Shown: positions 3,965 to 61,799 of the stretch, one piece after another
How positions within the stretch are numbered: the stretch's first letter is position 1
Layout: each line of letters starts with the position of its first letter
NCBI GenBank assembly: GCA_965200835.1
Contig: OZ241390.1
Coordinates: forward strand, 2,448,416 to 2,512,415
DNA length: 64,000 nt
Reading direction: 5' to 3'
From: Acidimicrobiia bacterium
Lineage (GTDB): Bacteria; Actinomycetota; Acidimicrobiia; Spongiisociales; Spongiisociaceae
The notes under the pieces: model-generated
Seen by the model: the letters and a program-made list of their open reading frames with translations, nothing else
Database searches by the model: none
What the model was told of the DNA's origin: nothing
Made by a program: the position numbers and the translations under genes

Positions 3965-4000
3965 TCCTCCCCGCCCGGTTGGCGAACCCTTGAGAGTGGG

Positions 4001-5233: not shown

Positions 5234-5262
5234 CGGTCGGGCAGGTCTGCAGGTCTGACACT

Positions 5263-6198: not shown

Positions 6199-6271
6199 TA
6201 GGGAGATGCAAGAGCCTGGTACTACAATCGGCCACCCGGACGGGGAGTTTCCACATGGAGGACACGACGCG

Positions 6272-8082: not shown

Positions 8083-8123
8083 GACAGACCGTCGAAGACA
8101 ATCACAGCAAGGGAGACGTCAAC

Positions 8124-8363
8124 ATGGATCGATCGCAAGTCCAGTCGAAGATGCGGGATCTGCTCGTGGAGGAACTCGGTCTGGACGCCTCCAAGATCGC
8201 AGACGGATCCACTTTCGAGGAAGATCTCGAAGTGGACTCGCTCGGGGTCGTGGAGCTGATAATGGCGCTCGAGGATGAGTTCGACGTTGCCATTCCCGAC
8301 GAGGAGGCCGAGAGCATCACCACGGTCGGCGAAGCGGTCGATCTGGTAATAGCCAAGCTCTAG
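8124..8363 (+). CDS. acpP: acyl carrier protein
   Basis: 79 aa with the LEVDSLGVVELIMALE motif carrying the phosphopantetheine-attachment Ser. Confidence 0.9.
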   Translation: MDRSQVQSKMRDLLVEELGLDASKIADGSTFEEDLEVDSLGVVELIMALEDEFDVAIPDEEAESITTVGEAVDLVIAKL

Positions 8364-8389
8364 CCGCACCGCTCCCCGAGGAGAGTCGC

Positions 8390-9646: not shown

Positions 9647-9835
9647 GGAAGCCAGGGGCAGTCCGTACGGAGCAGATTGGAAGGCCTGTGGCCGGTCCAA
9701 CTCCCGCATCGGAAGGTATGACTAGATGATGGTGTCCGACGTCATCCTTTCTTCATCGTGCCTCGCAGCGGTTCAACGGAACGTAGTGGACTAATACGAC
9801 CCGGTATTGATCTGGTTCAGCATGACCGCCGAGTG

Positions 9836-10099
9836 ATGGGAGTGTCGGGAGTGGAACGCAAACCTCAAATAATCGGGCCCGATGGCAAGCCTGTGGGCGT
9901 TACGGAGGTAGGATTTCGCGCTACGGGAGAATATTGGAACGAAAACCTGCTGGACGACGGTACAGTTGCTCGCTTGAAGCTGGTTGCAACACATTTCTAC
10001 CGACTTGAAGGAGAGAAGGATCCGAAGGGCCAGCCTGCCTACCTGATTGAGTCAAGCAACGTTGTGGCCATCTCGGCCAGTGTAGAGGGCGGTGCGTGA
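9836..10099 (+). CDS. hypothetical protein (first gene of TA-like islet)
   Basis: ORF 9758..10099. It lies in the low-GC patch and its stop overlaps the next ORF start (coupled). No recognisable domain and the start is uncertain. Confidence 0.3.
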   Translation: MGVSGVERKPQIIGPDGKPVGVTEVGFRATGEYWNENLLDDGTVARLKLVATHFYRLEGEKDPKGQPAYLIESSNVVAISASVEGGA

Positions 10100-10578
10100 T
10101 GGTGATGATGTTGTCTGAGCGCAAGTCTGAGATCACCCGGATGCCATTAAGGCGGCCGATGCTCAAGTCCGATGTGGAGAAGGAGATACTCCAAAGCCGA
10201 AGCGATGATCGGCAAGAATATTGGCCAACCGACACGGACTATGACCGACTGTTGTCGACTAACCCGGCCGGGGAAGAGGATACAGTTCCCGTTGTAGAGA
10301 CGGAGTCCGACGGTCATTCTGATTCTGCAATCGACCGGCTAGTTGTCTTATGGGCTGAAATCGTAGTCTCCCATGCGGTTGTTCGCGACATCGATGATCC
10401 ATCCGGATACACGGCTACAGTCGCAGGAGTAGAGGGTGCCTGGGCCTTCGGTGTATCTGAGGAAGAAGCACTTTACGAATTAAGGTCCGTACTGATCGGC
10501 TGGGCTTGCCTCAGGCTCGAGGACGGAGACGACGACATTCCCAGTATGGAGGGCCTTCATCTCGTCGCCAACCAATGA
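10096..10578 (+). CDS. HicB-like (UPF0150) antitoxin-family protein
   Basis: The C-terminal 60 aa (TATVAGVEGAWAFGVSEEEALYELRSVLIGWACLRLEDGDDDIPSMEG) matches the HicB/UPF0150 fold. The stop overlaps the start of the next small ORF (ATGA). Confidence 0.5.
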   Translation: MMVMMLSERKSEITRMPLRRPMLKSDVEKEILQSRSDDRQEYWPTDTDYDRLLSTNPAGEEDTVPVVETESDGHSDSAIDRLVVLWAEIVVSHAVVRDIDDPSGYTATVAGVEGAWAFGVSEEEALYELRSVLIGWACLRLEDGDDDIPSMEGLHLVANQ

Positions 10579-10763
10579 GCTCCAAGTTAGCGCCGACCAC
10601 CAGGCGAGTCCTGATTCGACAACCCTTGGACCTCGGCTGGGAGGGCCCGAGAACAGCTAAGGGTCACGATTACATGGTCAAGGGTCAACAAAAGGTACGC
10701 ATTCCCAATCCCCACCACCGAAAGGACCTTGGCGTGTGTTTACTTGTTCTGATCCTGAAATAG
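10575..10763 (+). CDS. HicA-like mRNA-interferase toxin (putative)
   Basis: A 62-aa ORF inside ORF 10506..10763. GWEGPRTAKGHDYMV...KVRIPNPHHRKDLG resembles the HicA core (GWxxxRxxGSH...HPxKDL). Confidence 0.45.
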   Translation: MSSKLAPTTRRVLIRQPLDLGWEGPRTAKGHDYMVKGQQKVRIPNPHHRKDLGVCLLVLILK

Positions 10764-10845
10764 GCAGACGAATCACGCCAGGAGTGGCTTGATACCCTAA
10801 AGTGATCTTGATAATTCATGAGATTTGGGTATCTACTTTGAGTAG

Positions 10846-11232
10846 TCAAACAGTGCCTAGTAAGGGTGTTATCGCGTAGGTTTTGCGCTCCGCAGAAGTT
10901 TCTCGAACGTAGCGGGTGCGATCGTGGGTGGTTGGTGCCCTGACCCACTCAAGCAGGTCTCTGTGGCCGGTCACGAGGTAATCGGCTGCCTGGTCCCGGG
11001 CAAGGGCCACAAGGTAGTCGTCGTCAACGTCACGGGTCTCCTGCTTGACCACCGCCGGGTTCGGGACAACTTCGGCTAGTCCCCGGATCGTTTTGATGTA
11101 GCGCTGGGCAACGTTGAGGTTGATCCACTTGCGCATCCTCGGACGACGGGTGAGGACGTCGGCGACCTCCGCGATTAGTTCCGGGCACATGACGATGTCG
11201 AAGTCCCTTGATCTGGTTAGCCAGCGCTGCAC
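10846..11232 (-). pseudogene. PIN-domain toxin fragment (TIGR00305-like, N-terminally truncated)
   Basis: The C-terminal two thirds of a PIN-family TA toxin (RDVDDDYLVALARDQAADYLVTGHRDLL) are present. The first about 30 aa with the DTNV motif are missing and an in-frame stop lies upstream. Confidence 0.4.
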
Positions 11233-11352
11233 GATTCGATACGACGGCCCGGACTGAGTCGCTGCGGATACCCAAACGTTGGATCAAGCATTACCCGCAC
11301 AGACGGCTGACGGAGCGGGCACGCCGACGACGCCGCACGGCCACGAACCTCT

Positions 11353-11712
11353 TTGCGTGACGAGATCCATCGTCTCGTCGACGGAGAGTTCAGAGTTGCG
11401 GCGACGTTCGCCACGAGATCCAACCGCGTACGAGACGCGTGGGCTGACTTTGACCCCGGTGCTGCACTCGACCGGCTTGCCTTATGGGCTGACATCGCCC
11501 TTTCCCATGCCTTCGTTCGTGGCACGGACGATCCTGCCGGACACATTGCGAGAGTCGCCGGTATAGAAGGTGCTTGGGCCTTCGGTGAAACCGAGCAGGA
11601 AGCACTCGACGAACTGAGGTCGGTGCTGATCGGTTGGGCACTCCGCAAGCTCGAAGGCGGAGACGACGATATTCCCAGCATGCGGGGCGTTCATCTCGTA
11701 GTCAAGCGATAA
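11353..11712 (+). CDS. HicB-like paralog (orphan)
   Basis: DDPAGHIARVAGIEGAWAFGETEQEALDELRSVLIGWALRKLEGGDDDIPSMRG is about 65% identical to the C-terminus of the 10096..10578 ORF. No partner toxin ORF lies downstream. Confidence 0.45.
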   Translation: MRDEIHRLVDGEFRVAATFATRSNRVRDAWADFDPGAALDRLALWADIALSHAFVRGTDDPAGHIARVAGIEGAWAFGETEQEALDELRSVLIGWALRKLEGGDDDIPSMRGVHLVVKR

Positions 11713-11770
11713 GTCGGACGCTATCGCTCGACCACGAGGGATGGGATCAGCCCGGCCTTCCAGGCTTTGC

Positions 11771-12019
11771 CTACTGATCGGGCCGGTGAGTGCCATCCCG
11801 GCGGAGCGAGACGGCGGTGACGACCAGACCGAACAGGGCGATCACGACTGCTATACCCAGGAGTAGGGCGACTACCACCGGTATACCTCCGAGCAAGGCA
11901 CCGAGTCCGAGGACCACCATACCGAGCAGGACAGCGGAGGCTCCGCCTACCACCAGGCTGACCAACCCGAAGTCGGCCAGAGAACTCCCGGACCTCCGTT
12001 CTTGTCGGTCGCCCGTCAA
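11771..12019 (-). CDS. small hydrophobic membrane protein (hypothetical)
   Basis: 82-aa ORF with two strongly hydrophobic helices. Could be the second half of a frameshifted membrane gene together with 12016..12306. Confidence 0.25.
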   Translation of the reverse strand: MTGDRQERRSGSSLADFGLVSLVVGGASAVLLGMVVLGLGALLGGIPVVVALLLGIAVVIALFGLVVTAVSLRRDGTHRPDQ

Positions 12020-12306
12020 GGCTCGGTGGGTCGGTGGTCGTCAGGCCGGGCGGATGGTGTTTCGGCATCGAGCTTTCGAGCCTGCTGGTTGTCCCGCCAC
12101 TCCCGGAGGGAACGGTCGGCCAGGACCACCACCACCCCGACACCTGCGGCAGCAACCAGACCGGAAGCCAGCGCGATGACCGGACCCATGATCGGACTAC
12201 ACGAGGTGTCTGCACATCCCACCGCCGTGACCGTCCAGCCGATGAAGCCTCCCACCAGCCCGGCGCCCACCACCGGTAAGAAGAAGCTGTAGCGGAGTCG
12301 GGCCAT
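12016..12306 (-). CDS. small membrane protein (hypothetical)
   Basis: 96-aa ORF with two TM helices, adjacent to and in a different frame from 11771..12019. Confidence 0.25.
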   Translation of the reverse strand: MARLRYSFFLPVVGAGLVGGFIGWTVTAVGCADTSCSPIMGPVIALASGLVAAAGVGVVVVLADRSLREWRDNQQARKLDAETPSARPDDHRPTEP

Positions 12307-12307
12307 C

Positions 12308-13069
12308 TCAACCGTTCCTTTCCAGGGGACGCCCTCGACGATCGTACCCGGCCGCCTCCATCAGGCCCGGAGGGGTCAGTTCAGGAAGGATCGAGACCGA
12401 GCTGACTCGGTGGGGGTCCAGCGGCATGACGGCCAGGCGAGCATCAGCGGTCCAGGCCAGGAACGTCAGCGTGGAGACGGTCACCAGCAGCCCGGCGGCC
12501 GCGACAGGTTGCAGACCCAGGACGGAGACGATACCCAGCGGCAGCAGACCCAGACGCACCAACCACAACGCCCCTGGGAGGGCTCGGGCATATGCCCAAC
12601 CGCCCAACCATCCGAAGGCGACCAGTACCCATCCGGATGGGCTCACCCCCGGATCCCCGAGACCGCCCACGACTGCCGGTAGCCAGATCAGGCCGAGGGC
12701 GAGCATGGTCGCTCGGGTGGGGACCCGATCGGGTTTCACCTGGAGAAACCAACTGTCCAGGGATCGGGTCCAGGCCAGCGTCACGCCGGCTCCATGGGTT
12801 ACCAGCGCCATGATCCACCACATGTCCACCGGAAGGGCGATGGCAACCACCGCCCAGGCCCCGGCTATCACCGCTACGGAGTTCCGCACCCATCTGCCAG
12901 GGGACAGCAGCAGGGCGACCACGTTTACGGCGGTGGCCAGCAGCAGGCCGGCGGCCAGCAAGGTAGCGCTGTGGCTGTCCCACCGCGAAGTCTGGAATGC
13001 CAGGCGCCCGGTCCACAACAGGCTGCCGAGCAGGATGCCGACCGCCGCGGCCGTGACTCTGTAAGGCAC
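12308..13069 (-). CDS. integral membrane protein (hypothetical)
   Basis: ORF 12308..13207 with at least 7 hydrophobic helices. A GTG at 13069 avoids overlap with the divergent NUDIX gene. Confidence 0.4.
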   Translation of the reverse strand: MPYRVTAAAVGILLGSLLWTGRLAFQTSRWDSHSATLLAAGLLLATAVNVVALLLSPGRWVRNSVAVIAGAWAVVAIALPVDMWWIMALVTHGAGVTLAWTRSLDSWFLQVKPDRVPTRATMLALGLIWLPAVVGGLGDPGVSPSGWVLVAFGWLGGWAYARALPGALWLVRLGLLPLGIVSVLGLQPVAAAGLLVTVSTLTFLAWTADARLAVMPLDPHRVSSVSILPELTPPGLMEAAGYDRRGRPLERNG

Positions 13070-13123
13070 GCCTCTATTGTGGCGCGCCGGGACGGGTGAT
13101 GGGAACCTCGGTACGATGGTCGG

Positions 13124-13648
13124 ATGGCAGTGCCGGGCATCGATCAACCGTGGCCGGGCGAGGCCGTGTTCTGTTCCGACTGCGGGACGCGCCTGGAGCG
13201 CCTCCACAGATACGGCCGGGATCGGGGCGTATGTCCCGGTTGCGGCCGGATCGATTTCCGGTCACCCTCCCTGGCGGTGGCAGTCGTCCTGCGCGACTCC
13301 CGGGGTCGGGTCCTGCTGGTCAAGCGTGGTCCGGGATCCTCTCGCCCAGGCTTGTGGTCCATTCCGGCGGGTTACATGGATTACGGGGAGGAAGTACGAG
13401 CGGCTGGTGCCCGTGAGGTGCTCGAGGAGACCGGCCTGGTCGTGGAGCTGGGTGCGCCGGTGTTCGTGGCTACCAACTTCCACGATCCCCTCAAGGTGAG
13501 CGTCTGTATCTGGTTCGACGGGAGGGTGGTGGCCGGTGACCCGGTGGCCGGATCGGACGCGGTGGAGGTGGGTTGGTTCCGCCTCGATGAGCTTCCAGAG
13601 CTTGCCTTCGATACCGATACGGAGCTCTTCTCGAAGATGGAAGGCTGA
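13124..13648 (+). CDS. NUDIX hydrolase with N-terminal zinc ribbon
   Basis: CSDCG...CPGCG zinc ribbon followed by the Nudix box GYMDYGEEVRAAGAREVLEETG. Confidence 0.8.
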   Translation: MAVPGIDQPWPGEAVFCSDCGTRLERLHRYGRDRGVCPGCGRIDFRSPSLAVAVVLRDSRGRVLLVKRGPGSSRPGLWSIPAGYMDYGEEVRAAGAREVLEETGLVVELGAPVFVATNFHDPLKVSVCIWFDGRVVAGDPVAGSDAVEVGWFRLDELPELAFDTDTELFSKMEG

Positions 13649-47433: not shown

Positions 47434-49235
47434 GTGTTCGCCTACGGGCGCCCCTACCGGTGGCTCCTGGTGGGGGTGCTGATCACCATCCTGATCATCT
47501 CGGTCCTGTCGGTGATCCCGCCCATCCTGATCAGGGACCTGGTGGATCGGGCCATGCCGGACGCCGACCTGGGCCGCCTGACCCTGCTCGGGGTCGGGAT
47601 GGTGGCGGTGCCGCTGGTGAACGTCTGTGTGGGCGCCCTACAACGCTGGATGTCTGCCAAGGCGGGCGAGGGCATCATCTACGACCTCCGCCGCAGTCTC
47701 TACATCCATCTCCAAGCCATGTCGCTGCGGTTCTTCACCGCCACCAAGACCGGCGAGCTGGTGTCACGCCTCGACAATGACGTGGTGGGCGCTCAGACGG
47801 CCATCACCGGCACCTTCGTGACCATCCTGTCCAATCTGGTCTCGATAGTGGCCATCCTGTTCGTGATGCTCCAGGCCGAGTGGCGGCTGACGCTGCTGGC
47901 GGTGGCCGCCTTCCCGCTGTTCGTTTACCCGGCTCGACGGGTGGCCCAGATCCTGCGCCGGATCACCCGCCGCCAGATGCAGCACAACGCCGCCATGGCC
48001 GCCATCCTCAACGAGACTTTCAACGTCAGCGGAGCCCTGCTGGTCAAGCTGTTCGGCCGCCGGCGCCAGGAGACGGAGCGGTTCTCCGAGGAGGCCCGGG
48101 CGGTGCGGGATCTGGGGGTTCGCCAAGCGGTCATCGGGCGGTGGTTCTTTGCCGCGCTCGGGGCGGTCAGCGCCATCGGGACCGCCACGGTGTTCTGGGT
48201 GGGTGGCTATCTGGTGATCCAGGGTTCCCTGAGCCTGGGCACGGTGGTCATGTTCTCCTCCCTGCTGTTCCAGCTGTATGGGCCCCTGGCCGCCATGTCG
48301 AACGCCCGGGTGGAGTTCGCTACTTCCCTGGTCTCCTTCGAGCGGGTGTTCGAGGTACTGGACCTACCCCACGACATCACGGAGGAGCCCGATCCGCTCG
48401 ACCTGCGGCCGGTCCGGGGCCGGGTCCACTTCGATAGGGTCTCCTTCCGCTACCAGGGGGATGAGCTGTCGGGCCTGGCCCCGCCCAGCGTTCCTGGGGG
48501 ATCGAGGACAGTGATGCTCCGGCGATGCAAGCCACCCGCACCTGGGCGATCGACGACCTGTCCTTCCGGATCGAACCGGGAGAGCTGGTAGCGCTGGTCG
48601 GACCATCGGGGGCCGGAAAGACCACCGTCTCCTACCTGGTTCCCCGGCTGTACGACACCGAACGGGGGCGGGTGATGATTGACGGCACCGATGTACGGCG
48701 GGCGACCCTCGCCTCGCTGGAGGAGGTGGTGGGGGTGGTGACCCAGGAGACCTTCCTGTTCCACGACACCATTGCGGCCAACCTCCGGTATGCCAAGCCC
48801 GATGCCTCCCAGGAAGAGCTCGAGGAGGCGGCTCGAGCAGCCAACATTCACGACTTCATAATGACCCTGGCCACCGGTTATGACACGGTGGTGGGGGAGC
48901 GGGGCTACCGGCTGTCGGGGGGCGAGAAGCAGCGCATCGCCCTGGCCAGGGTGATCCTCAAGGATCCGCAGATCCTGATCCTCGATGAGGCCACCGCCCA
49001 TCTCGACTCCGAGTCGGAGGCGCTCATCCACGAAGCGCTGCAGCGGGTGATGGCAGGTAGAACCTCGCTGGTGATCGCCCACCGCCTGTCCACCATCGAG
49101 TCCGCCGACCGGATCCTGGTGCTGGACGAGGGCCGGCTGGTGGAGGAGGGAACCCACACCGAGCTGCTCGAGGCCGATGGTCTATATGCCCGGTTGCGCC
49201 GGATCCGGCTCAGGCGGCGGAAAGTTCCCGCCTGA
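47434..49235 (+). pseudogene. MsbA-like ABC exporter (fused TMD-NBD) disrupted by a frameshift near 48470-48540
   Basis: ORF 47434..48591 holds a 6-TM domain up to VSFRYQGDE and then runs out of frame. ORF 48525..49235 holds the NBD ([34 protein letters not shown]). In the NBD frame the upstream sequence already reads ...[14 protein letters not shown]. Confidence 0.7.
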
Positions 49236-49768: not shown

Positions 49769-52700
49769 TTGACCGAAAACACGCTTCCCACACGAGCGCC
49801 CTCGGTGGGCGAGCTGGTAAAGGTCAGGTCACGCCAGTGGCTCGTGGAGGAAGTGGGCCAGTCCGACAACCCTGATCACTCTCCCCGCGTGCCGCTCGCC
49901 TGCGTCGACGATGACAATCAGGGCCAGCGCCTCTCTGTGTTCTGGAAATACGAACCGGATCGGCTGATCCTCGAGGACGCCGGTTGGAACCACCTGGCGA
50001 CCAAGGGCTTCGACCCACCCCGGCGCTTCGCGGCCTTCCTCAACACCCTGCGGTGGAACTGCACCACGGCCACCGACCCCACCCTGCTCCAGGCGCCCTT
50101 CCGAGCGGGCATCACCATCGATGCCTACCAGATGGAACCCCTCCGCAAGGCCTTGCGCCTCCCGCGGGTGAACCTGCTGATCGCTGACGACACCGGCCTG
50201 GGCAAGACCATCGAGGCGGGCTTGATCACCCACGAGCTGCTCCTCCGCCGCAAGGTCAAGGTCATCGTGGTGGCCGCGCCCCCGTCGATGCTGGAGCAGT
50301 GGAAGGGAGAGATGGAGGATCGCTTCGGGCTGGTGTTCGAGGTGCTCGACCGGAGCTACGTCTCGAGGATGCGGCGTGAGCGAGGTTTCGGGGTCAACCC
50401 GTGGCGGACCCACAGCCGGTTCCTGGTGTCGCACCGCCTGCTGATCGACCCCTCCTACACCGACCCGATGCGGGAGTGGTTGGGTGACCTCCGCACCGGC
50501 AGCCTGCTGATCCTCGACGAGGCGCACCATGCCGCCCCCACTTCGGGCGGGCGCTACGGCATCGAGACCAAGTTCACCCGGGCAGTTCGCGATCTCGCCC
50601 ACCGCTTCGAGCATCGCCTGTTCCTGTCGGCCACGCCCCACAACGGGCACTCCAACAGCTTCTCCACCCTGCTGGAGATCCTCGACCCGTACCGGTTCAC
50701 CAGGGGAGTCAAGGTGACCGCACCCAAACAGGACCTCGCTCCGGTGATGGTGCGCCGGCTGAAGGAGGACATCCGGGCGCTGCAAGGTGGGTTCCCCAAG
50801 CGCAACGTCCAGCGGATCGAGATCGACGGCTTGCCCCACGACGCTCCGGAGTTGGCCCTGTCCCGGTTGCTGGATGAGTACGGCCGGGTACGCGATGAGC
50901 GCTACTCGCTGGAGTCGAAACGAGTCCGTTATGCGGCGAGGCTGATGGTGGTCGGCCTGCAGCAGCGCCTGCTGTCATCGATAGAGGCCTTCCATCGCAG
51001 CCTCCTGGTCCATCGCCGGACCGTGTTACGCCACTGGACCAAGGCCCACGAAGAGGTGTCTGAAGACACTCCACAAGGGCGCGGGATCACGACGAGTGAG
51101 CGCCATGACTTCGTGGCAGCTGCCGATGCGGACGATGACCGAGCCGAGTTGACTCCGGAGGAGGCGGGAGCGGACGAGCAGGCCCAGATCGAGGAGATCA
51201 ACGCGGCCTCCCTTCCCTCGCGGGACCCGGCGAGGGCAGCTTGGGAACGGGAACAGCGCCTCCTCGACCGGATGCAAGCGATAGCGAAGAAGGCCAGGCA
51301 TCATCCCGATGCCAAGACCCGCTGGCTGATCGACTGGATCCGCCGCCACCAGTGCCCGGATCTGCCCGAGCTCGGCCGACCCATCATCGGCCCTCCGCCG
51401 ACCTGGACCGACCGCCGGGTGCTGATATTCACCGAGAACCGGGAAGGCACGAAGAAGTACCTGAAGTCGATCCTCGAGCAGGCCATCTTCGGTTCCGACC
51501 GGGCGGACGACCGGATAGCGATCATCGACGGGCTGACCAGCCCGGCCCGCCGCCGGGATGTCCGGCGCCGCTTCAACGCCGATCCCGCCCGCGAGCCCCT
51601 GCGGATCCTGATCGCCACCGACGCCGCCCGGGAAGGCCTCAACCTGCAAGCCCAATGCTCGGACATGTTCCACTTCGACCTGCCCTGGAACCCCGGCCGC
51701 ATCGAGTAACGCAACGGTCGGATCGACCGAAAGCTCCAACCCGCCGATCAGGTGAACTGCCACTATTTCGTGCTGCCCCAGCGGGTTGAGGACCGGGTGC
51801 TCGATGTCCTGGTCCGCAAGACTGAAACCATCAAGCAGGAGCTTGGTAGTTTGCCGAAGGCCATCGAGGACACAGTGGAGCAGCGCCTCACGCGGTACGG
51901 GATCCGTCACCACGATGCGGAGAACCTGCGGCGCAAGGTAGAGGCCGAGTCGGTGGACCAAGCTCACGCAAGCGTGTCCGACGAGGAACTCGAAGCCGCC
52001 CGGGACCGCCGCCATGACCTCCAGGATCAGATAGAACGCTGCCGCCGGCTCCTCCAGAAGTCCCGGAGCTGGGTGAGATTTTCCCCCGAGCCCTTCCACC
52101 AGGCCATCGACTGCTCCCTGGAGCTGCTGGGTGCCCCACCCCTGGTGGAGAGCACCCAGGTCCAGGGGGGGGGGGCGTCGTCGAGTTTGGAAGTTCCCTG
52201 AGCTAGATCAGAGGGCAACCACCGATCCGAGCTGGGTTTCCACGCTCGACTCCCTGCGGGTTCCCCGCAAGATCGACCAGAAGATACCCGACTGGCGGCG
52301 CGACGCGCCCATCCGACCCCTGGTGTTCGAGGACACCGGACTGCTCGATGACCAGACCGTCCACTTCCACCTAGAGCAGCGAGTCGCTCAGAGGCTGCTG
52401 GCCCGCTTCCGATCCCAGGGCTTCATCCATCATGACCTTTCGAGGGCCTGCCTCCTGCAGTCGCGGGACGCAATATGCAGGGTGGTGCTCCTGGGACGGC
52501 TGTCGCTATACGGCCGGGGTGCTGAGCGCGTCCACGAGGAGCTCGTTCCGGTAACCGCCCGCTGGACCGATCCCGACCGGCGCTCTGGCCCCTTACGTGC
52601 CTACGCGACGGACACTGAGCGGTTCACTATGCGGCTGCTCGACGAGTCGTTGAGCTCCCAGGCTCGCTCGCCCAATCCGCAGGTCAAGCGGCGGCTGCTG

Positions 52701-53081
52701 GGCAGTGTCGCCCAGGACATCGAGGAACTACGTCCACATCTAGAGCCCCGCGCCGCCACGTTTGAGGAGCGCGCCAGAGAGCAACTGGCAGAACGCGGTA
52801 AGCGAGAGGAGCGGATGCTGCATGACACGCTCGAGCGGCACCGCACCCAGGTGGTTGCCCAACTCTCCCGTTATAAGCGCGACCTCAAGCAGCTGTCCCT
52901 GGGGTTCAACGTTGCGGAGAGGGGGCAGCTCAAAGCCGACATCCGCCACTGGGGCCGGCGCCTGGAGAAGTTCGATCAGGACTTGATGGACGAGCCCGCC
53001 CGGGTTCGCGAGCTCTACCGAGTGCGGGTCACCCGGGTGGAGCCGGTGGGCCTCGTCTACCTATGGCCGGAGGGAAACTGA
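49769..53081 (+). pseudogene. SNF2-family helicase (DISARM DrmD-like) with an in-frame TAA at 51707 and a G11-tract frameshift at 52165
   Basis: Walker A LIADDTGLGKT, DEAHH box, LSATPHNG and motif VI DLPWNPGRIE-*-RNGRIDR, with the stop in place of the conserved Gln. ORF 51752..52201 continues in the same frame. After the G11 run, the frame of ORF 52131..53081 continues for a further 300 aa. Confidence 0.7.
52165..52175 (+). repeat. G11 homopolymer tract inside the SNF2 helicase gene
   Basis: Eleven consecutive G residues read directly. Reading frames switch across it. Confidence 0.9.
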
Positions 53082-56000
53082 TGCCCAAGCCCAACCGCTA
53101 CATCACCGACCATCTCGAATGGATCGGCTTCGTTCGGCCCACCGGTCTGGTGGTGTCAGCTCCCGCCTTGGTAAAGGCGGGCGTCATCCTCAACCGTCGG
53201 GATCGGGCCGGCCAGCAACTACTCAAGGAGTGCCTACCGAACGGCTCGGGTACGACGGGATCACAACCCGACCCGGCCCCCGTACTTCCGGACTTCCCGG
53301 CCTTCGCCCGTACGGTGCTCGGCTGGAGTTTCTCTCCCAAGGGCTATGCCGGTACGGAGGAATCACCGATTCCCTCCGAGCTCGAGCTCTCCCTACCCGA
53401 TTCCGGAGGCGGGTTCCGGCCTGACTTCGCAGTTCTAGCCGACCCTGCCCGGTCCCGGCCGCCCGCCACCAACGGAAACAAGCGTGAAGGGACCGACCGG
53501 GCATCGCCCTGGCAGCTGCTGGTCAGCACCTACGAGCCCTGCGAAGACTTCGACAAGACAGCCTCGAACGGCTCGGGAGTGGAGATGTCGCCCCACAGCC
53601 GGATGGAGCGCCTGCTACGTGACACCCGGGTGCCCGCCGGGCTCCTTTTCGACGGAACGACCATTCGCCTGGTGTCCGCTCCCAAGGGCGAGAGCTCGGG
53701 ATGGATGGACTTCCAGGTGGGCGACATGATCCAGACCGCTGGGCGCCCGATCTGCACTGCGATGCGCGAGCTGCTCAGCCAGACCCGGCTCCTAGTCGTA
53801 GGGCGCGACCAGCGCCTGGCCGCGCTGCTGGAGGACAGCCGGAAGTTCCAGAACGAGGTGAGCGAGCGCCTGGCCGAGCAGGTACTGCACGCTCTGTACG
53901 AGCTACTGCGAGGTTTCCAAGCCGCCGATGACACCGCAAAAGGCCAGCTACTTGGACGCTGGCTGGCTGACCAACCCGATGAGATCTACAGGGGGTTGCT
54001 CACCGTGGTGCTGCGCCTGGTCTATCTGCTGTACGCCGAGGAACGCGACCTGCTGCCCCAGGACGAGACCTTCCTAGGGCCTACTCGGTGTCAGGCCTAT
54101 ATGAGCGTCTGCGGGCTGACGCCTCCCTCCATCCCGACACTATGGACCAGCGCTACGGAGCCTATGCCCAGCTCCTAGCCCTATGGCGCATGGTTCATGA
54201 CGGGGCCAAAGCGACCGACATGGTGATGTCGCCCAAGTATGGCGACCTCTTTTGCCCGACCGCTACCCCTTCCTCGAAGGCAGTCTGGGGGCCAGGCAGA
54301 CGACTGACCGCATCGAGGCACCGCTGGTACCCGACGGCACTATCCATCGGGTGCTGGAGAAGCTGATCGTGCTGGACTCCGAGCGCATCTCCTACCGAGC
54401 TCTCGATGTGGAGCATATCGGTTCGGTGTACGAGACCATGATGGGTTTCCGCCTCGAGAGGGCCACCGGTCGCAGCATCGCCATCAAGGCTGCCAAGAAA
54501 CACGGCGCTCCGGCCACCATCAACCTCGATGAACTGCTCTGTCAGGCTTCCAGTAGCCGGACCAAGTGGGTCAAGGATCGGACCGATCGACAACTAAGCG
54601 CAAAGGTGGGCCGGGCGGTCCGGGAAGCCACCACGCTGGAGGAGCTCCATGCCGCCCTCGATCGGGTGATCGACCGCCAGGCCACACCTGATCTCGTCCC
54701 GCCCGGCGCCATGGTGCTGCAACCCAGCCAGGAGCGCCGCCGCTCGGGTTCCCACTACACGCCCCGCAGCCTGACGGAGCCGATCGTCCGCAAGGCGCTG
54801 GACCCAATCCTGGACCGCCTCGCTGAAGAACAAGAGGGCCCACTTCGACCGGAACAAATCCTCGACCTGAAGGTGTGCGACCCGGCCATGGGCTCGGCGG
54901 CGTTCCTGGTAGAAGCGTGCCGCCAGCTGGCCGACGCCCTGATCGAAGCTTGGCGGGCCCACGAAGAAGCACCCGACCTCCCCCCGGGCGAGGACCAGCA
55001 GATCTTCGCTCGCCGACTGGTGGCTCAACGCTGCCTCTACGGAGTCGACCGCAACCCCAAGGCAGTGGACCTAGCCAAGCTGTCGTTGTGGCTCATCACC
55101 CTGTCCAAGGACCATCCGCTCACTTTCCTCGACCACGCCCTCCGCCATGGCGACTCGCTAGTGGGTCTGTCGATCCCTCAGATAAGGGCTTTCCATTGGA
55201 AAGGCAACGCTCCCGCCTTTCAGGAGGGTTTTGAGGCCCTCCGAGGACAGCAGCTACTCGCCGATGCAGCCGAGCTACGCAGGTGGATTCGCGAGGAAGG
55301 CGACACCATATCCGAGCGGGAGATGCGCGAAGCGTGGATGGAGTCGCGTGAAGTGACCGACGACCTCCGCTTGTTGGGGGACCTGGTGCTGGCGGCGTTC
55401 TTCGATGAGTCCACGCCAACGGCGCGGGAGGCACGTCGTAAAAGGTTCGCGAATGGCGTTCAGAACGGTATCGAGGGACAGTATCGCGCCTGGATGGAGG
55501 AACTTCGCAACCAGGACCGACCCCTCGCGCCACTCCACTGGCAGATCGAGTTTCCCGAGGTCTTCGACCGTCCCAATCCCGGCTTCGATGTCATAGTCGG
55601 TAATCCACCATTCGCTGGTAACAACACTATTACCGCTTCGAACATCAACCGCTATTCCCACTGGCTCAAGGAGATGCATGTTGAGAGCCACGGCAATTCG
55701 GACTTGGTAGCTCACTTCTTTCGGCGAGCCTTCAATCTGGTCCGTATGGGTGGAACCTTTGGTCTTATCGCTACCAATAGCATCTCCCAAGGTGACACAC
55801 GCTCGACGGGACTACGATGGATATGCAAGAACGGCGGAGAAATATTTTGTGTTCGCAAGCGTGTGAAGTGGCCTGGACAAGCTGCGGTAGTAGTGAGTGT
55901 ACTCCACATCAGCAGAGGTGGATTTCACGGCTACAGGCTCCTTGACGGTCACTCCGTATCAAAGATCACAGCCTTCTTATACTATCGAGGCAAGAACGAT

Positions 56001-57107
56001 GATCCGAGGTCGTTGAAAGCTAACATAGCCAAGAGTTTCTTGGGTAGTATAATACTGGGGATGGGGTTTACTTTTAACGATAACGATAAGGAGCGTGTGG
56101 CTACACCAATTAGAGAGATGGAAAGACTCCTAAGGTCTAATCCTTCGAATCAAGTGGTTATTTGTCCATATATAGGAGGGAGGGAGCTAAATAACAACCC
56201 GACCCAAAAAAACCATCGTTCCGTAATTGACTTCGGGGAGAGAAGTTTGTCAAAGTGCAGATTCCATTGGCCCGACTTACTAGAGATAGTAACCAATAAG
56301 GTTAGACCAATACGAATCAAGAAGCGTTATCCTCGTATGGCGAATGAGTGGCGGAAACATTATGCACCCCAATTAAAACTATACGATTCTATTAGGGGTT
56401 TAAAACGGGTTATGGCAACTTGTAGGGTTAGCCAACACATGTCTTTTGCCTTTCTGTCTAACGGAATGGTCTATGCAGACTCATTAGTTATATTCTCCTA
56501 TGAGAGATTCGCCGCATTCTGCGCGCTCCAAGCAAGACCTCACGAGATCTGGTCTCGATTCTTCGGATCCTCGATGAAGGACGACTTACGCTATACAGTC
56601 ACAGACTGTTTCGAGACATTTCCACTTCCGAATAGCTGGGAGAGCCGCTCCGACTTCGAATCAGCAGGTGAGGAATACTACGAGTTCCGGGCAGACCTGA
56701 TGAAATTCAACGATGAAGGCTTGACCAAGACATACAACCGATTCCATGATCCCAGCGAGAACGATGCCCGGATTATCGAACTCCGTAGACTGCATGCCGC
56801 CATGGATCGGGTTGTACTGGACGCATACGGGTGGAGTGACATCCCGACGGACTGTGAGTTCCTGCTCGACTACCCGATCGATGAGGACAACTGGGGCAGG
56901 AAGAAGAAGCCTTACCGCTACCGCTGGCCTGACGAGGTTCGTGATGAGGTGCTGGCTCGGTTGCTGGAGCTCAATGCCGAGCGGGCTGCTGAAGAAGCAC
57001 GGTCCGGTCAAGCCAACCCACCGCGTGGCCGGGGACGGCTCCAAAAGTCGCCACCCACGACTTCTCCATCCAACCAACTCACCTTGAGCCCTTCCAATGG
57101 CACCTGA
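53081..57107 (+). pseudogene. Eco57I/type IIG-like N6-adenine DNA methyltransferase (DISARM DrmMI-like / PglX-like), two frameshifts
   Basis: ORF 53063..54178 in frame A, ORF 54088..54366 in frame B (SGLYERLRADASLHPD...) and ORF 54252..57107 in frame C. Frame C carries motif I (DPAMGSAAFLVEA) and motif IV (VIVGNPPF). An ATG at 53081 overlaps the upstream TGA (TGATG). Confidence 0.75.
55740..56800 (+). other. low-GC (about 45-50%) segment inside the methyltransferase ORF
   Basis: Base composition falls sharply against about 68% flanks while the reading frame stays open (ICKNGGEIFCVRKRVKW ... NRFHDPSEND). It lies downstream of the NPPF catalytic motif, where target-recognition domains sit. Confidence 0.7.
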
Positions 57108-57120
57108 ATGGAGGTGACCC

Positions 57121-60100
57121 ATGCCTGAGCCGGACCCATCTCCCGGATGGAACGAGGCCCCCTCACCGGAGGTGCGCGACTACCTGGTCGAAGCGTTGCG
57201 GCTCGATCTGGTCGGTCCGGGGGCTGGCCATCACCTGGCCGATGAGCAGCTGCCGGGATGGGTTAGACCGTCCAGCTGGTACCTCACCGGGTTTCTGATC
57301 CCCTCGGGCACGCCACTCGAGTTGCGCTCCGACAACGACGAGGACGACCCGCTGGACGAGACTCCGGCCACCGCCGGTCTGGCTGAGGAGTCGTCGGAGG
57401 AGCGGAGGGCAGCCCGCAAGAGCTTCTTCCCGTCGTCGATCGGGCTGAGCTTCCTCGTCCCACACAAGACGGAGGTGCTGGACATAACCGTTCGCTGGGG
57501 CGACTACCAGCGGTCGACCACCGAGGGCACCGACGGCAAGCCGCTGAAGGTGTGGCAGAGGCACCCGCAGGAGCACACCGTGGCGGTCACTCTCCCGGAC
57601 CGATCCTCCGATCATGAGGTTCCGGAGTCCGGTGGGCTGGGGCTGCACATGGTCACGAGGCCAGTGGAGGTCGAGGGTCCCGACGGCCTCACCCAGCAGG
57701 TCAATTCGGTGTCGATATTCCTGGTCAACCATCGGCCCTCGCTCGGGGGCCAGCCCGGCGACGTTACGAGCCTCGGCGACGCCGATCTCGGCTACGCCTT
57801 CCAGGCCGAGCTCGAGATCACCAGTGAGGTGCCATTCGTGCCCCGTCCTGACCCCCGTGGGGCGCATGGTCGGGAGTGGGACGACCAGGTAGCCGACCTC
57901 CACTATGCGGACACACCTGAGTACGCGGTCGGCCACGGGGTATCAGCCGAGTGGGAGGTGGTGGGCGGCAAGTGCCATGTCCTGCGCACTACCTGGATCC
58001 CGGACGCCGCAGTGGCGAAGACCGAGGCCACCTCGAAGCCGGAGGCGGAGCTGTCGATGGAGGTGCTCGGAAGTCTTCCGGATGGCGACGCGGTATCGGC
58101 GGCCTTGCGGCCGCTGGTAGAGCACTACCGAGCCTGGATCGACAGCCAGTACCGGACTCTCACCGCACACACGGGTGACCGCCGGAAGACCGCGGGGGAG
58201 CTATTGAGTCACGCCCGCGGGGCCGCCGACCGTATCGAGCGGGGGATCGACCTGCTGGTTACCGACCCGGACGCCCTCGACGCCTTTCGGGTGGCCAACC
58301 GGGCCGTGGCCACTGCCTTGCAGAGGAGGATCGGCTCCCCACCTGAGGAGTCGGGATGGCGCTGGTATCCATTCCAGCTGGCGTTCATCCTGCTCAACCT
58401 CCCCGGTCTGGGCGATCCGCAACATCCCGAGCGCCCAGTGGTCGACCTCCTCTTTTTCCCGACCGGCGGCGGCAAGACCGAGGCCTATCTGGGTCTGGCG
58501 GCCTTCACCATGGTGCTGAGACGCTTGCGGGAACCCGGCCATGAGGGCCGGCAAGGGGCAGGCGTCACCGTGATCATGCGTTACACGCTCTGGCTCTTGA
58601 CCCTGGATCAGCTGGCCCGGGCCTCCGGCCTGGTGTGCGCGCTGGAACTGGAGCGCCAGCTCGATCCCGACCGCTATGGAACCTGGCCGTTCGAGATCGG
58701 CCTGTGGGTGGGCAAGGCGGCCACCCCCAACGCGATGGGTCGGGTGCGTGACGGACGGCAGGACACGGCCCGGGCCAAGACCCGCCGATACAAGGCCAAT
58801 CCGGGATACCACCCCCTGCCCATTCCCCTCGAGACCTGCCCGTGGTGCGGTCAGCAGTTCGAGCCGGCGAGCTTCACGCTGCTGCCCGACGACGAGCTGC
58901 GCATCGTGTGCCTCAACTTCGAGTGTGACTTCCAAGGGGACAACCCGCTGCCGATCGTGGCGGTGGACGATCCCATCTACCGGCGTCTGCCTGCCTTCCT
59001 GATCGCCACGGTCGACAAGTTCGCCTCCCTGCCCTGGACGGCCCGCACCGGCCTGTTGCTCGGCGGCGCCGACCGCATCGACGCCAAGGGCTACTACGGA
59101 GCGGCCGATCCCGGAATCGGTCGCCCGCTCGACCACCCGCTACTGGCCCCTGACCTGATCATCCAGGACGAGCTGCACCTGATATCAGGGCCCTTGGGCA
59201 CCATGGCCGGCCTGTACGAGACGATCATCGAAGCCTTATCTGTCCAGGCCAGCGAGCGGGCCGGTCATCGTCCAGAGGGCCGCCGGTCGCCGCAGGTACG
59301 GCCCAAGATCGTGGCCTCCACTGCAACAGTCCGCCAGGCGCAGAGTCAGGTCCAGGCCCTGTTCGCCCGGTCGGCCACCCGGGTGTTCCCACCCCCAGGG
59401 CCGGACCGGAAGGATTCGTTCTTCGCCGAGACTGTCCCCACCACCCAGGTACCCGGCCGCTTGTATCTCGGTATCGCGGCGCCGGGACGGAGTCCCAAAG
59501 TCCTGATGCGCCGGGTCTGGCTGGCCCTGATGGGATCCGCCGAGCGGGCCTACCGAGACGCCGGCGGGCGCAAGAACCGGGACAACCCGGCCGATCCCTA
59601 CATGACCGTGCTGGGTTACTTCAACAGCCTGCGGGAGCTGGGTGGGGCGCGCCGCATCCTCGAGGAGGAGGTCCGCAACACCGTCAAGACCTACGGGCGT
59701 CGCCGCCGGATCGGCCAGTCCTTCCAGGAAGCACCGTTCCGGGATCGGACCAGCTTCGCGGAGGTGGTGGAGCTCACCTCCCGGGTTCCGACCGGCAAGG
59801 TGGCCGAGGCGAGACGGCGGCTGGGATGCGCCAAGCACGAGCAGGACAGCGTGGACAGCGCTATCGCCACCAACATGATCTCGGTGGGTCTCGACATCCC
59901 CCGGCTCGGGCTGATGGTGGTAGTCGGCCAGCCCAAGACCCACTCCGAATACATCCAGGCCACCAGCCGGGTGGGGCGGGACGATCAGCGGCCGGGACTG
60001 GTGGTGACCTTGCTCAACATGCACAAACCCCGCGACCGATCCCACTACGAGCGCTTCCGTCACTACCACGAGACCTTCTACCGCTCCGTGGAGGTGTCCA

Positions 60101-61799
60101 GCGTCACGCCCTTCTCGGCCAGGGCCCTCGACCGCGGGCTGGCCGGCGCACTGGTGGGCTACGCCCGCCATGCGGAAGGAGTGCTCACGCCGGCCGAGGG
60201 AGTCGAGGAACTCGAAGCGGTCAGGGTTACGGTCGAACGACAACTCCGGCAGGTACTGCTGCAGCGAGTGGACCGCCAGCCCTTCCAATACGAGACCGAG
60301 CACACCGAAAGGCGCCGGAGCGTGACCGCCCGGGTGGTGGAACTACTCGACTCGTGGTTGAAAGTGGTGGAGGGCTACCACCAGGTAAACAGCCCGGTGA
60401 GGTATCAGAAGTACGAGGGGAAAGCGGCCGCCAAACCACTGTTGCGGGAGATGCTCGACCAGGACTTCGAGACCGCCCACCATCGCAAGTTCCGAGCCAA
60501 CCGCTCCCTACGTGATGTCGAGCCGGAGGTGAACCTGTATATCAGGCCGCTCACCGCCTCTCTCGGCGACTCTACGAGGCCACCGAGCTCAGCGACTGGC
60601 CGCTCGGTCTGTGCCTGGGCAGGCGGCCGTGGCTGGGTCGCGGCACCGACGAGGATTGCACGCTACCGAGCCGGTTGCTCATCCGCACCGCCTCCAACGC
60701 CTACTTTCCCCAGGTGGTCAGCGTCCTGTCGCTGCCTGATCGGGGCACCGATCTGGACCGGGTGGTGGGGGAGCTCTGGGAGGACCTTCAGCTGGTGGAC
60801 CGCTTGAGCCATCTCCGCTTCCTCAAGAAGAAGGCGAAGGTAAGCGGGGGACTGGCTGGCTTTGCCGACGCTGAGGTGCTGAAGGCGATCCAACGCCGCA
60901 AGGGCGGGTCCGCGGGCGACCGCTCCGTCAAGGAGGCCGAGCTCGAGGAACTGCTGGCCGCGCCGGAAGGATTCGGCGACCGGGGACAGGTCGATCCGAA
61001 CTTCCACGCCCGGCGCCTGCCACAGAGTGCCTGGAGATCCCCGCGGTCGAAGCTGAGCGGTGGAGTAGAGGGAGTGATCCACCTCCACCGGTTGCGCGAG
61101 GTGCTGGCCCTGATCGGATTCACCCGCTTCGAGGCCGTTATCCGTGACATCCACGGCGAGTACGACACCGATGTCGAGCGGGCCGGCATCGCCCTCGATC
61201 CCAGCTGGTTTCCGGCGATCGAGAACCGTGACGAAGGCCTGTTCGCCTACCTGAGACCGGAGGAGGTCGACAGGTGGTTACGGAGACGACCCGCGCAAAC
61301 CCGGATAGACGACCTTCGCAACCGGCACGAGACCGGCCAGCAAGGCCGTAAGCATCCCTGGCCCTTCCCCGGAGGCCCCTACATCCTGTTGCACACGCTC
61401 GCACACCTGCTCATCCAGTGGCTGGCCATGCGTTGCGGCTACCCGGCCAGCTCCATCCGCGAGCGGATCTATGTGGAAGGTCAGCGCTATGGCCTGCTCC
61501 TCTACACCGGATCTCCCGACGCCGAAGGGACCCTGGGCGGCCTCGTCCAGCAAGCCCGCCACTTCGAGGACCATCTGGCCTATGCGCTTCGGGTGGGCGA
61601 GCTTTGCTCCAACGACCCGATCTGTGCCCAGCACGGAGCTGGCACCGCCCTCGAGGAGGGTCACCTGCACGGTGCCGCCTGCCATGCTTGCACGCTGATA
61701 GCCGAGACCACCTGCGAGATGCGCAACGACTACCTCGACCGGGCGCTGGTAGTCCCGACCCTCGGCTCGGACGGTGCCGCCTTCTTTCCGTCCCCCTGA
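57121..61799 (+). pseudogene. large DEAH-box helicase with C-terminal DUF1998/MZB zinc-binding domain (DISARM DrmA+DrmB-like in one frame), one frameshift near 60540-60575
   Basis: ORF 57121..60807 has a 440-aa N-terminal domain, Walker A FFPTGGGKTEAYL, IIQDELHLISG, an inserted CPWCG...CLNFEC zinc ribbon and motif VI QATSRVGRD. ORF 60675..61799 has the DUF1998 Cys cluster CSNDPICAQH...GAACHACT. GC3 tracks frame 0 until about 60575 and frame +2 from about 60543. An SD GGAGGTGA lies 6 nt upstream. Confidence 0.7.

Follow-up and report, generated by a model that had tools for sequence, protein, structure and literature searches.

An AT-rich block in the methyltransferase gene drmMI of a degraded class 1 DISARM locus as a probable exchangeable specificity cassette

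The methyltransferase gene drmMI of a class 1 DISARM locus carries a low-GC block, which is the strongest compositional outlier in the window—the whole 64-kb stretch of DNA analyzed here. This block is probably an exchangeable specificity cassette of DrmMI: Breakpoints that recur among homologues and the loss of the lineage signal inside the block point to a recombination-delimited cassette of AT-rich ancestry. The cassette would extend from the catalytic NPPF motif over the remainder of the methyltransferase (MTase) domain and the whole MmeI-type target-recognition domain (TRD). By analogy with MmeI, this span would include all parts of the protein that contact the recognition sequence. The initial annotation, which had read the block as a horizontally exchanged TRD of recently changed specificity, is supported in part. 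Because the cassette sits in an already broken gene and defense locus, the case illustrates a known type of event well but does not reveal a new mechanism.

The window has a mean GC content of 0.647 with a standard deviation of 0.042 in 300-nt windows and of 0.033 in 1-kb windows. The GC minimum of 0.413 at position 56201 is the lowest value in the window and lies ~5.6 standard deviations under the window mean. The limits of the block were determined by a two-breakpoint likelihood fit with a log-likelihood gain of 64, and GC is 0.469 within these limits and 0.653 outside. The drop to about 47% GC inside the ORF, as initially described, is confirmed by these values, and both GC and GC3 fall in sliding windows, with GC standing out as an outlier against the window background; the flanks, taken to have 68% GC, measure about 65%. 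GC3 decreases from about 0.78 to 0.37–0.60 and GC1 from 0.71 to 0.47—the lowest GC1 in the DrmMI family—and GC2 is nearly unchanged. The amino acid usage is of the AT type as well: In the family comparison, the block lies at the 97th percentile for FYMINK and at the 5th for GARP, and its amino acid composition resembles that of a 48%-GC host. The block features three GC tiers, namely ~0.51 (55584–55950), ~0.42 (55950–56470), and ~0.50 (56470–56800). The most variable protein segment, which coincides with the deepest tier, has a median identity to homologues of 45%. Inside the block, no Rfam match to an embedded RNA and no long alternative or antisense ORF were found, and promoter-like sites are no more frequent than expected from shuffled sequence.

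The block-bearing gene is assigned to drmMI, the predicted N6-adenine methyltransferase of class 1 DISARM. It had been taken for a type IIG/Eco57I-family enzyme; PADLOC identifies it as the DrmMI methyltransferase, which probably lacks a nuclease domain, and its DrmMI models score far above the type IIG models for this protein. The description as a continuous ORF applies to the block, which lies inside one frame (54252–57107), but not to the gene, since two upstream frameshifts cut off its first ~370 codons. The main ORF matches the Pfam families Eco57I (residues 261–513), MmeI_Mtase (447–551), and MmeI_TRD (610–794). The catalytic motif IV reads GNPPF at residues 450–454 and does not vary across the aligned family. 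The start of the block falls on the NPPF codons (55602–55613; fitted boundary 55584) and not about 200 nt after them, as first placed. From there, the block runs through the latter half of the MTase domain and the MmeI-type TRD and ends a little past the TRD. The exchanged unit had been equated with the TRD; it includes the TRD but is larger, as it starts from NPPF and takes in ~143 MTase-domain residues, among them the loop after NPPF.

The only solved relative of DrmMI is MmeI (PDB 5HR4), and drmMI aligns to its residues 463–886 with weak similarity (E = 1.3e-8). The MmeI TRD has its boundaries at 621–825, and K487, S488, and K489—the counterparts of the residues just after NPPF—contact DNA (PMC4833311). 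TRDs of the MmeI family diversify widely, and alteration of the TRD can change specificity (PMC4833311, PMC2731914). DrmMI and the type IIL/IIG enzymes of the MmeI family have in common a gamma-class N6-adenine MTase, the NPPF motif, the MmeI-type TRD, and a C-terminal helical region. Unlike MmeI, DrmMI acts in the multigene DISARM system; the match of the 5′ piece of drmMI to the MmeI N-terminal domain (PF20464), where the bifunctional type IIL enzymes have a PD-(D/E)XK endonuclease, stays sub-threshold with 25.4 bits versus a cut-off of 27, and the exchange unit of DrmMI begins within the MTase domain, at NPPF, and not at the TRD boundary. PglX of BREX is described as a defense methyltransferase as well, with a 6-bp nonpalindromic motif that is set by the TRD and can be re-engineered (PMC11341690). 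However, it belongs to another protein family and system, and PADLOC PglX matches to the drmMI protein are marginal (E ~5e-10, 80 residues).

Table 1. Features of the DISARM locus and of the low-GC block in drmMI (positions in the window; residues of the drmMI main ORF)
Feature	Position	Strand	Evidence
drmD, SNF2 helicase	49769..53081	+	PADLOC DrmD, E = 1.6e-217 and 6.7e-46 for two pieces
drmMI 5′ part, first ~370 codons	53063..54178	+	PADLOC DrmMI, profile positions 7-303 of 1347
drmMI main ORF, 951 codons: MTase domain, TRD, C-terminal helical region	54252..57107	+	PADLOC DrmMI, E = 1.9e-284
Candidate upstream homology arm, conserved DNA encoding HWQIEFPEVFDR.NPGFD.IVGNPPF	55529..55613	+	Three-way DNA alignment
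Low-GC block, probable exchanged specificity cassette	55584..56796	+	Likelihood breakpoints; identity breakpoints in homologue pairs; lineage signal lost, then regained
Phylogenetically discordant part of the block, residues 445 to about 800	55584 to about 56650	+	
Deepest GC trough (about 0.42) and most variable protein segment, residues 566-745	55950..56470	+	
MmeI-type TRD, residues 610-794	56079..56633	+	Pfam PF20466, E = 3.2e-10, 40.2 bits (cut-off 27); alignment to MmeI 5HR4
drmMI C-terminal tail, host-like GC and backbone lineage signal again	56797..57107	+	
drmA, helicase, ORF apparently intact	57121..60807	+	PADLOC DrmA, E = 1.3e-270
drmB (DUF1998/MZB), 5′-truncated	60675..61799	+	PADLOC, E = 5e-52, profile positions 322-602 of 606; Pfam MZB

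The exchange can be followed in homologues of drmMI. In pairs with N parts that are 96–100% identical, identity drops to about 50% at NPPF (query residue 446–455) and recovers near residue 800–850 (query residue 810–850); blockA is 59–68%, the core 39–46%, and blockC 64–71% identical. L080 and L081 are alleles from one metagenome sample. They share 96% DNA identity from the start of drmD to nucleotide 2546 of drmMI and show no detectable similarity over the ~800 nt past this point. In the three-way DNA alignment, the two alleles are identical through the GNPP codons and diverge immediately afterward, and in both, GC falls to about 0.49 there. In about 25 of 80 loci, the GC breakpoint lies at most 70 nt from NPPF. 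The block is very unlikely to stem from a chimeric metagenome assembly that fused two organisms in the conserved NPPF stretch, or from local pseudogene decay, although the DNA appears to come from an assembled genome on a 2.8 Mb contig and the gene is frameshifted: The frame is open for 951 codons across both junctions in 47%-GC DNA, and host-like sequence resumes on both sides of the block. Family-invariant residues are kept, as DrmMI of the window departs at 3 of 220 near-invariant family columns, which is within the family range. In addition, dozens of independent assemblies have the same low-GC pattern, among them that of the isolate Alkalispirochaeta alkalica DSM 8900 (L048).

The lineage signal of the window's own gene was judged by the identity of its drmMI to 10 in-clade relatives versus 62 others. 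Identity is 73.5% in-clade versus 64.1% to the others in the N part (p = 5e-7) and 62.9% versus 53.2% in residues 400–444. The difference is not significant in residues 445–500 (58.2% versus 61.9%) and over the whole cassette (55.5% versus 56.1%). In residues 800–848, values of 70.8% versus 62.9% are obtained, and in the C tail of 84.2% versus 79.0% (p = 0.005). The backbone lineage signal is gone from residue 445 and back by residue 800, so that a comparison of the block apart from its flanks, as had been suggested, separates the two: The flanks keep the in-clade signal, whereas the block does not. In the correlation of all-pairs identities, the N part versus the cassette gives a rho of 0.23, and the halves of the N part versus each other give 0.63. 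The horizontal exchange of a module, proposed from composition at first, is upheld by the shared breakpoints in homologue pairs, by the lost lineage signal of the gene itself, and by its AT-rich codon and amino acid composition. The nearest backbones from Acidimicrobiia and the SepF/dcw genes suggest that the DNA may stem from an actinobacterial MAG. The nearest relative of the window's drmMI has an N-part identity of 79%. Since no relative is close enough to show the swap on this backbone, we infer the swap in this lineage from discordance and composition.

No cassette donor above 61% identity was found in 5.8 billion proteins clustered at 90%, and an exhaustive HMMER search over 1.84 billion cluster representatives yielded block identities of at most 58%. 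The best block identity anywhere is 58–61%; phages hold no cassette closer than 42% and plasmids none closer than 53% (Nostocales plasmids). A one-off recent import would feature a low-GC donor TRD that changed the specificity, with the low GC dating the event. The absence of a lineage signal in the cassette fits this scenario, as do a GC3 difference of about 0.3 and an amino acid usage of the AT type, both indicative of little amelioration. Such an import is nevertheless unlikely, as the cassettes of all 10 closest relatives differ in sequence but dip to the same depth, the databases searched hold no donor above 61% identity, and the gene is now frameshifted. Because all 10 relatives dip equally, low GC appears to characterize the cassette pool and provides no clock for this genome. 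The recent change of specificity, which was part of the initial annotation, is unsupported on account of the equally AT-rich relatives and the missing donor; the GC3 trough is also family-wide, and the gene is frameshifted.

This family-wide GC3 trough across the cassette is milder (−0.10, −0.13, and −0.06) and still amounts to −0.076 at columns with a conservation of 90% or more. It is found in hosts of 47% to 72% GC. Per-site variability was rejected as the cause of the low GC3: Conserved cassette columns are AT-shifted too, and variable N-part columns are not. The trough in the same columns of these hosts, conserved columns included, and a graded dip whose depth peaks in the most divergent part of the protein would both agree with compositional drift in place. 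In such drift, a local regime makes the region AT-rich and a foreign origin is not needed—for example, if a divergent cassette, barred from homologous recombination, escapes GC-biased gene conversion or if selection on codon usage is relaxed. Drift is a quite unlikely explanation of the block given that pairs with identical backbones show the exchange directly, that the in-clade dip of −0.15 to −0.18 exceeds the family mean of −0.07 two- to threefold, and that the amino acid composition fits a 48%-GC host. It could, however, help to keep cassettes AT-rich. The equal AT richness of all in-clade cassettes is also a point against the exchange of cassettes: If these circulate only among high-GC hosts, import followed by amelioration does not explain why they stay AT-rich. 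As the milder trough is present even in hosts of 47–48% GC, part of the GC effect may be intrinsic to the region.

In the preferred reading as an exchangeable cassette, drmMI alleles would recombine homologously through conserved DNA on both flanks of the cassette. The 5′ arm would be a stretch of about 80 nt up to and including the NPPF codons, and the 3′ arm would be the conserved C-terminal region. The incoming cassette would displace the old one and, since it does so on an unchanged backbone, would alter the methylated motif. The cassettes would have a history separate from that of the backbone and an AT-richer reservoir as their source, which would account for AT-shifted third positions and amino acids in a 65%-GC gene. 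In HsdS of type I systems, TRDs are shuffled via recombination in conserved flanks. This exchange of specificity domains can be likened to that of the DrmMI cassette, although family and system are different.

For some class 1 DISARM drmMI genes, programmed inversions that alter the DrmMI coding sequence have been published, and these, too, diversify the C-terminal portion of DrmMI that determines its specificity (Milman et al. 2023, PMC9881135). They are intragenomic and use inverted repeats and silent segments, whereas the variation of the window is best described as allelic replacement between genomes. Despite this precedent, a programmed inversion or shufflon, in which the cassette alternates with silent copies via site-specific recombination, is extremely improbable here: The 64 kb contain one block-like sequence only and no second cassette, and inverted repeats do not go beyond matches of chance size. 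There is also no space for silent cassettes because drmA starts 14 nt past the end of drmMI.

The gene order of the locus, drmD–drmMI–drmA–drmB (PADLOC), and its strong profile matches correspond to class 1 DISARM as in Serratia sp. SCBI (classification of Ofir et al. 2018), but the locus differs from the latter by being without drmC and by having drmD, drmMI, and drmB disrupted. The lesions of drmD are an in-frame TAA at 51707–51709, which stands where IEQRNGRID has CAA, and a frameshift at a G11 tract (52165–52175). Comparison of the intact L080 DrmD with the locus by tblastn gives one stop and one frame change in drmD. The two frameshifts of drmMI are 1-nt deletions at about 54077–54080 and 54250–54255, and P0003 matches drmMI in three frames (tblastn). 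The drmA gene is 70–71.5% identical to that of the in-clade relatives L003 and L004. The drmB gene is ~0.6 kb shorter at its 5′ end than its homologues, and the homology gap between drmA and drmB measures 119 nt in the window versus 640–770 nt in relatives. In relatives, drmC immediately follows drmB (PADLOC DrmC, E = 1e-52); here, none follows drmB, and drmC was not found in the 64-kb window by tblastn (best E = 0.67). For class 2 DISARM, drmC—a PLD-family nuclease—is described in a preprint as dispensable for defense (bioRxiv 10.1101/2021.12.28.474362). Judged by its reading frames, the DISARM locus is degraded and decaying in this genome, and the lesions predict no DISARM activity. As drmMI is frameshifted twice and the locus is degraded, expression of any specificity is improbable at present, and the cassette would be idle and out of use in this genome. 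Relaxed constraint in the DrmMI protein was rejected by the count of near-invariant columns given above. A defect in motif I (GSAAF versus GSGAF) was dropped because the position is not invariant in the family, and a conserved programmed frameshift in drmMI was rejected because short homologues start at differing positions with no common site.

In DISARM, the methylated sequence decides self, and the swap of a recognition module would therefore re-key the defense system. The same preprint describes DrmMI of Serratia as marking self DNA by methylation of the nonpalindromic sequence ACACAG (bioRxiv 10.1101/2021.12.28.474362). The unit that DrmMI exchanges in nature, reaching from NPPF to the TRD end, would be larger than the TRD alone and may be traded across phyla; its limits offer a practical guide to engineering DrmMI specificity. 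For genome scans, an AT-rich TRD region is to be regarded as normal in the DrmMI family, and transfer is not datable from it. The biological consequence in this genome is small because both gene and system are inactivated. A more tentative and rather doubtful reading is that the DISARM loci of this clade of high-GC, largely sponge-associated bacteria are genuine contingency loci that vary on two levels. The first level may be the cassette, always starting from NPPF, drawn from a cross-phylum AT-rich reservoir, and AT-rich despite 65%-GC hosts. The second may be formed by hypermutable poly-G/C tracts of 10–21 nt in drmD and drmMI, which would toggle the system. If so, the window would show where such a locus ends up, first turned off and then in decay.

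The gene that carries the low-GC block, described in the initial annotation as an Eco57I-type type IIG enzyme, instead matches PADLOC DrmMI (E=1.9e-284), the N6-adenine methyltransferase of the anti-phage defence system DISARM. Since drmD, drmA, and drmB lie beside it, the locus can be assigned to class 1 DISARM. MmeI (5HR4) is the only solved relative; its residues 463-886 align with DrmMI residues 431-865. MmeI features an MTase domain (301-620), a target recognition domain (TRD; 621-825), and C-terminal helices (826-919), and contacts DNA by K487, S488, and K489, directly past the catalytic motif NPPF (PMC4833311). Mapped onto these boundaries, the block takes in the latter half of the MTase from NPPF on, the whole TRD, and ~50 residues beyond.

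Features of the DISARM locus, its lesions, homopolymer tracts, and adjacent or compositionally similar regions (positions in the window unless a homologous locus, L, is named)
Feature	Position	Detail
drmD	49769-53081	neighbor of drmMI
drmD nonsense	51707-51709	CAA-to-TAA, within conserved IEQRNGRID helicase motif
drmD frameshift	52165-52175	at 11-G tract
drmMI single-base deletions (two)	~54077-54080 and 54250-54255	
drmMI main ORF (951 codons)	54252-57107	Pfam: Eco57I; MmeI_Mtase aa 447-551; MmeI_TRD aa 610-794
Low-GC segment	55584-56796	inside drmMI
drmA	57121-60807	neighbor of drmMI
drmB	60675-61799	neighbor of drmMI
drmB 5' end		~0.6 kb missing
Further tract sites	L004 3890-3899; L003 2816-2826; L031 2649 and 11101; L063 4902; L002 6490	
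ABC exporter transmembrane ORF	47434-48591	
ABC exporter ATPase ORF	48525-49235	67-nt overlap with transmembrane ORF, different frame
HicB-like paralogues (two)	10096-10578 and 11353-11712	by eye
HicA-like ORF	10506-10763	by eye
PIN-like ORF	10846-11232	minus strand; by eye

The block is real, as first noted, and the shift far exceeds local variance. Mean GC across the window is 0.647 (sd 0.042, sliding 300-nt windows), and the minimum of 0.413 at 56201 is the lowest in 64 kb. A two-breakpoint likelihood fit gives a GC of 0.469 inside the segment versus 0.653 outside (log-likelihood gain 64). In frame, GC3 drops from ~0.78 to 0.37-0.60 and GC1 from 0.71 to 0.47, with GC2 nearly flat. The core of the block (55950-56470) has a GC of ~0.42 and carries shoulders of ~0.50-0.51 on both sides. 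The block starts at the NPPF codons (55602-55613) and not ~200 nt past them, as initially placed. Elsewhere in the window, GC is low only at 9.1-10.9 kb, where it goes down to 0.53 over 1 kb.

The DrmMI family is large, and full-length homologues of ~1350 aa are 60-70% identical overall. The median identity to the window protein is 70% for the N part (residues 1-444), 67% for 445-565, 45% for the core (566-745), 65% for 746-848, and 77% for the C tail. In some homologue pairs with N parts 96-100% identical, the three sub-blocks of the cassette, from 445-565 to 746-848, are 59-68%, 39-46%, and 64-71% identical. In four independent pairs, identity breaks down at query residue 446-455 and is regained at ~810-850; the breakpoints of two more pairs differ somewhat. 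Two homologous loci, L080 and L081, lie on two contigs of one metagenome sample (ERZ21830300) with different upstream neighbors. Their DNA is 96% identical from base 1 of drmD up to drmMI nt 2546 and without detectable similarity for the following ~800 nt, and the GC of both drops from ~0.65-0.69 to ~0.49 exactly at the point of similarity loss. In a base-level alignment, divergence begins directly after the GNPP codons. The conserved stretch of ~80 nt upstream of this point is present in the window too (55529-55613) and probably represents a natural homology arm.

The best N-part identity of any relative to the window is only 79%, too low for a direct view of a swap; therefore, the lineage signal was tested instead, across 73 codon-aligned genes. 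The backbone clade of the window comprises ten loci (L001-L005, L007, L008, L052, L080, and L081), several of whose records carry sponge-associated MAG names. DrmA is 70-71.5% identical to the window in-clade versus 62.7% outside. Over all pairs, N-part and cassette identity correlate with a rho of 0.23, compared with 0.63 between the N-part halves.

Identity (%) of DrmMI segments to the window protein inside and outside its backbone clade
Segment	In-clade	Out-of-clade	p
N part	73.5	64.1	5e-7
Residues 400-444	62.9	53.2	1e-5
Residues 445-500	58.2	61.9	not significant
Whole cassette	55.5	56.1	0.37
Residues 800-848	70.8	62.9	2e-5
C tail	84.2	79.0	0.005

Since the lineage signal is lost in the cassette and kept in the flanks, the discordant segment spans residues 445 to ~800 (55584 to ~56650), from NPPF to the TRD end, with a vertically coherent backbone on either side. 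Such discordance is what double-crossover replacement leaves behind. The proposed exchange of a specificity domain is thus supported by the identity breakpoints in homologue pairs and the lost lineage signal here; the unit is, however, not the TRD alone, as the discordant segment already starts at NPPF within the MTase domain.

That TRDs determine the motifs of BREX PglX is established. The same holds for TRD diversification in MmeI-like enzymes (PMC4833311); DrmMI of Serratia methylates ACACAG (bioRxiv 10.1101/2021.12.28.474362), and DrmMI variation by programmed inversion has been published (PMC9881135). Added here are the natural exchange unit of DrmMI, which starts sharply at NPPF on the 5' side and stops close to the TRD end on the 3' side, and its consistent AT-richness. 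Programmed inversion was rejected for the window: the 64 kb hold a single block-like sequence and no inverted repeats larger than chance-size matches, and drmA follows drmMI after 14 nt.

The initial annotation took the low GC as a sign of a recent specificity change. Yet the same dip is present in 10/10 in-clade relatives (N part 0.64-0.67, block 0.50-0.55, core 0.42-0.51), whose cores are only 36-54% identical to that of the window. Because every close relative combines this signature with another cassette, the low GC is a trait of the cassette pool and unusable for dating an event here; as a sign of recent specificity change in this genome, it is not supported. In 79 reference loci spread over many phyla, block GC averages 0.07 below the N part and core GC3 averages 0.12 lower, the dip being present even in 47-48% GC hosts; in ~25/80 loci, the 5' GC breakpoint was fitted no more than 70 nt from NPPF. 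Resolved by column, GC3 in the family is offset by -0.10, -0.13, and -0.06 in the three cassette parts and by ~0 in the C tail. Site variability as the source of this deficit was rejected, since cassette columns at least 90% conserved are still shifted by -0.076, compared with only -0.029 at variable N-part columns; the deficit is a property of the region. The window cassette has a FYMINK fraction of 0.30 (97th family percentile) and a GARP fraction of 0.26 (5th percentile), and its GC1 of 0.47 is the family minimum, lower than in a homologue whose host has 48% GC. This shift at the protein level, together with the lowest GC1, indicates long evolution under AT pressure and, hence, AT-rich ancestry. 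AT-rich cassettes persist throughout a clade of 65%-GC hosts.

No donor was identified in full-length, word-index, HMMER, phage, and plasmid searches. The best block identity was 61% among top full-length matches, 60% in a block-only word-index search, and 58% in an exhaustive HMMER search of 1.84 billion representatives; phage records gave one match (42%), and plasmids at most 53%, on those of Nostocales. The three sub-blocks have different proteins as best matches, so the cassette itself is a mosaic. The block gave no match to an Rfam family, is not enriched in promoter-like sites, and contains no competing ORF.

Set against intact homologues, drmD, drmMI, and drmB carry the lesions tabulated above, and drmA is the sole intact ORF among the DISARM genes of the window; drmC, which follows drmB directly in relatives, is not in the 64 kb. 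The DISARM locus (49769-61799) is decaying. Generally poor assembly is unlikely, because other genes of the window, for IleRS (1074 aa) and DnaE (1169 aa), are intact; sequence errors may still affect the indels themselves. The window DrmMI departs at 3/220 near-invariant columns (A349E, T510S, and W701R), within the family range. All 107 homologues have tryptophan at residue 701 (56352-56354), the latter of two adjacent W conserved in the TRD, where the window has arginine. With nearly all of these columns kept and the 951-codon frame open through 47%-GC DNA, inactivation is recent compared with how old the cassette is. In-frame stops occur in 9/82 drmMI genes (region aligned to the window protein; L006, L010, L021, L023, L044, L054, L056, L066, and L069), and frameshifts or interruptions in 8/70 drmD genes, so that inactivated DISARM genes are frequent among these genomes. 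Directly upstream of DISARM (47434-49235), an ABC exporter is seemingly split in two, which may be another frameshift.

G/C homopolymers of 10-21 nt occur in or beside DISARM genes: all seven tracts of at least 10 nt in 1.17 Mb of fetched DNA lie in or beside drmD or drmMI. The window G11 is the only homopolymer of at least 8 nt in 64 kb and sits exactly on the drmD frameshift. In L004, a C10 marks the frameshift in the same variable DrmD linker; the bases being opposite, the two tracts arose independently. L003 has a C11 at another drmD frameshift, and two of the three block-like copies in L031 have C17 and C21 tracts, ~620 nt before NPPF. The pattern looks like phase variation that turns DISARM on and off; searching the full texts of one literature library found no report of poly-G/C phase variation in this system. 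Long-read homopolymer length errors could mimic an "off" frame but not the tracts themselves. Long poly-G/C tracts coincide with drmD frameshifts in three relatives.

L080 and L081 place one DISARM backbone in two different chromosomal neighborhoods within one metagenome. L080 carries 7.4 kb of variable cargo between drmMI and drmA (HEAT, TPR, MJECL33, and Peptidase_M78-like genes), and L081 has comparable cargo 3' of drmMI, where the window has drmA directly; drmD is intact in L080 and has an in-frame stop in L081. MAG APA_bin_98 contains three short contigs (L001, L002, and L006), each with a full drmMI of similar backbone (N part 74% identical to the window) and a different cassette, which would fit an assembly broken up by strain-level cassette polymorphism. 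In L031 (Gemmatimonadota MAG OY282356.1), three block-like copies, each 55-57% identical to the window block, lie in tandem on one strand of 3272-13240 with a spacing of ~4.1-4.4 kb, which suggests three drmMI genes. The second low-GC patch of the window, taken as 9700-11750 (~0.53-0.55 over 1 kb), lies between fabF and a membrane-protein gene and holds small ORFs that, judged by eye, are toxin-antitoxin-like.
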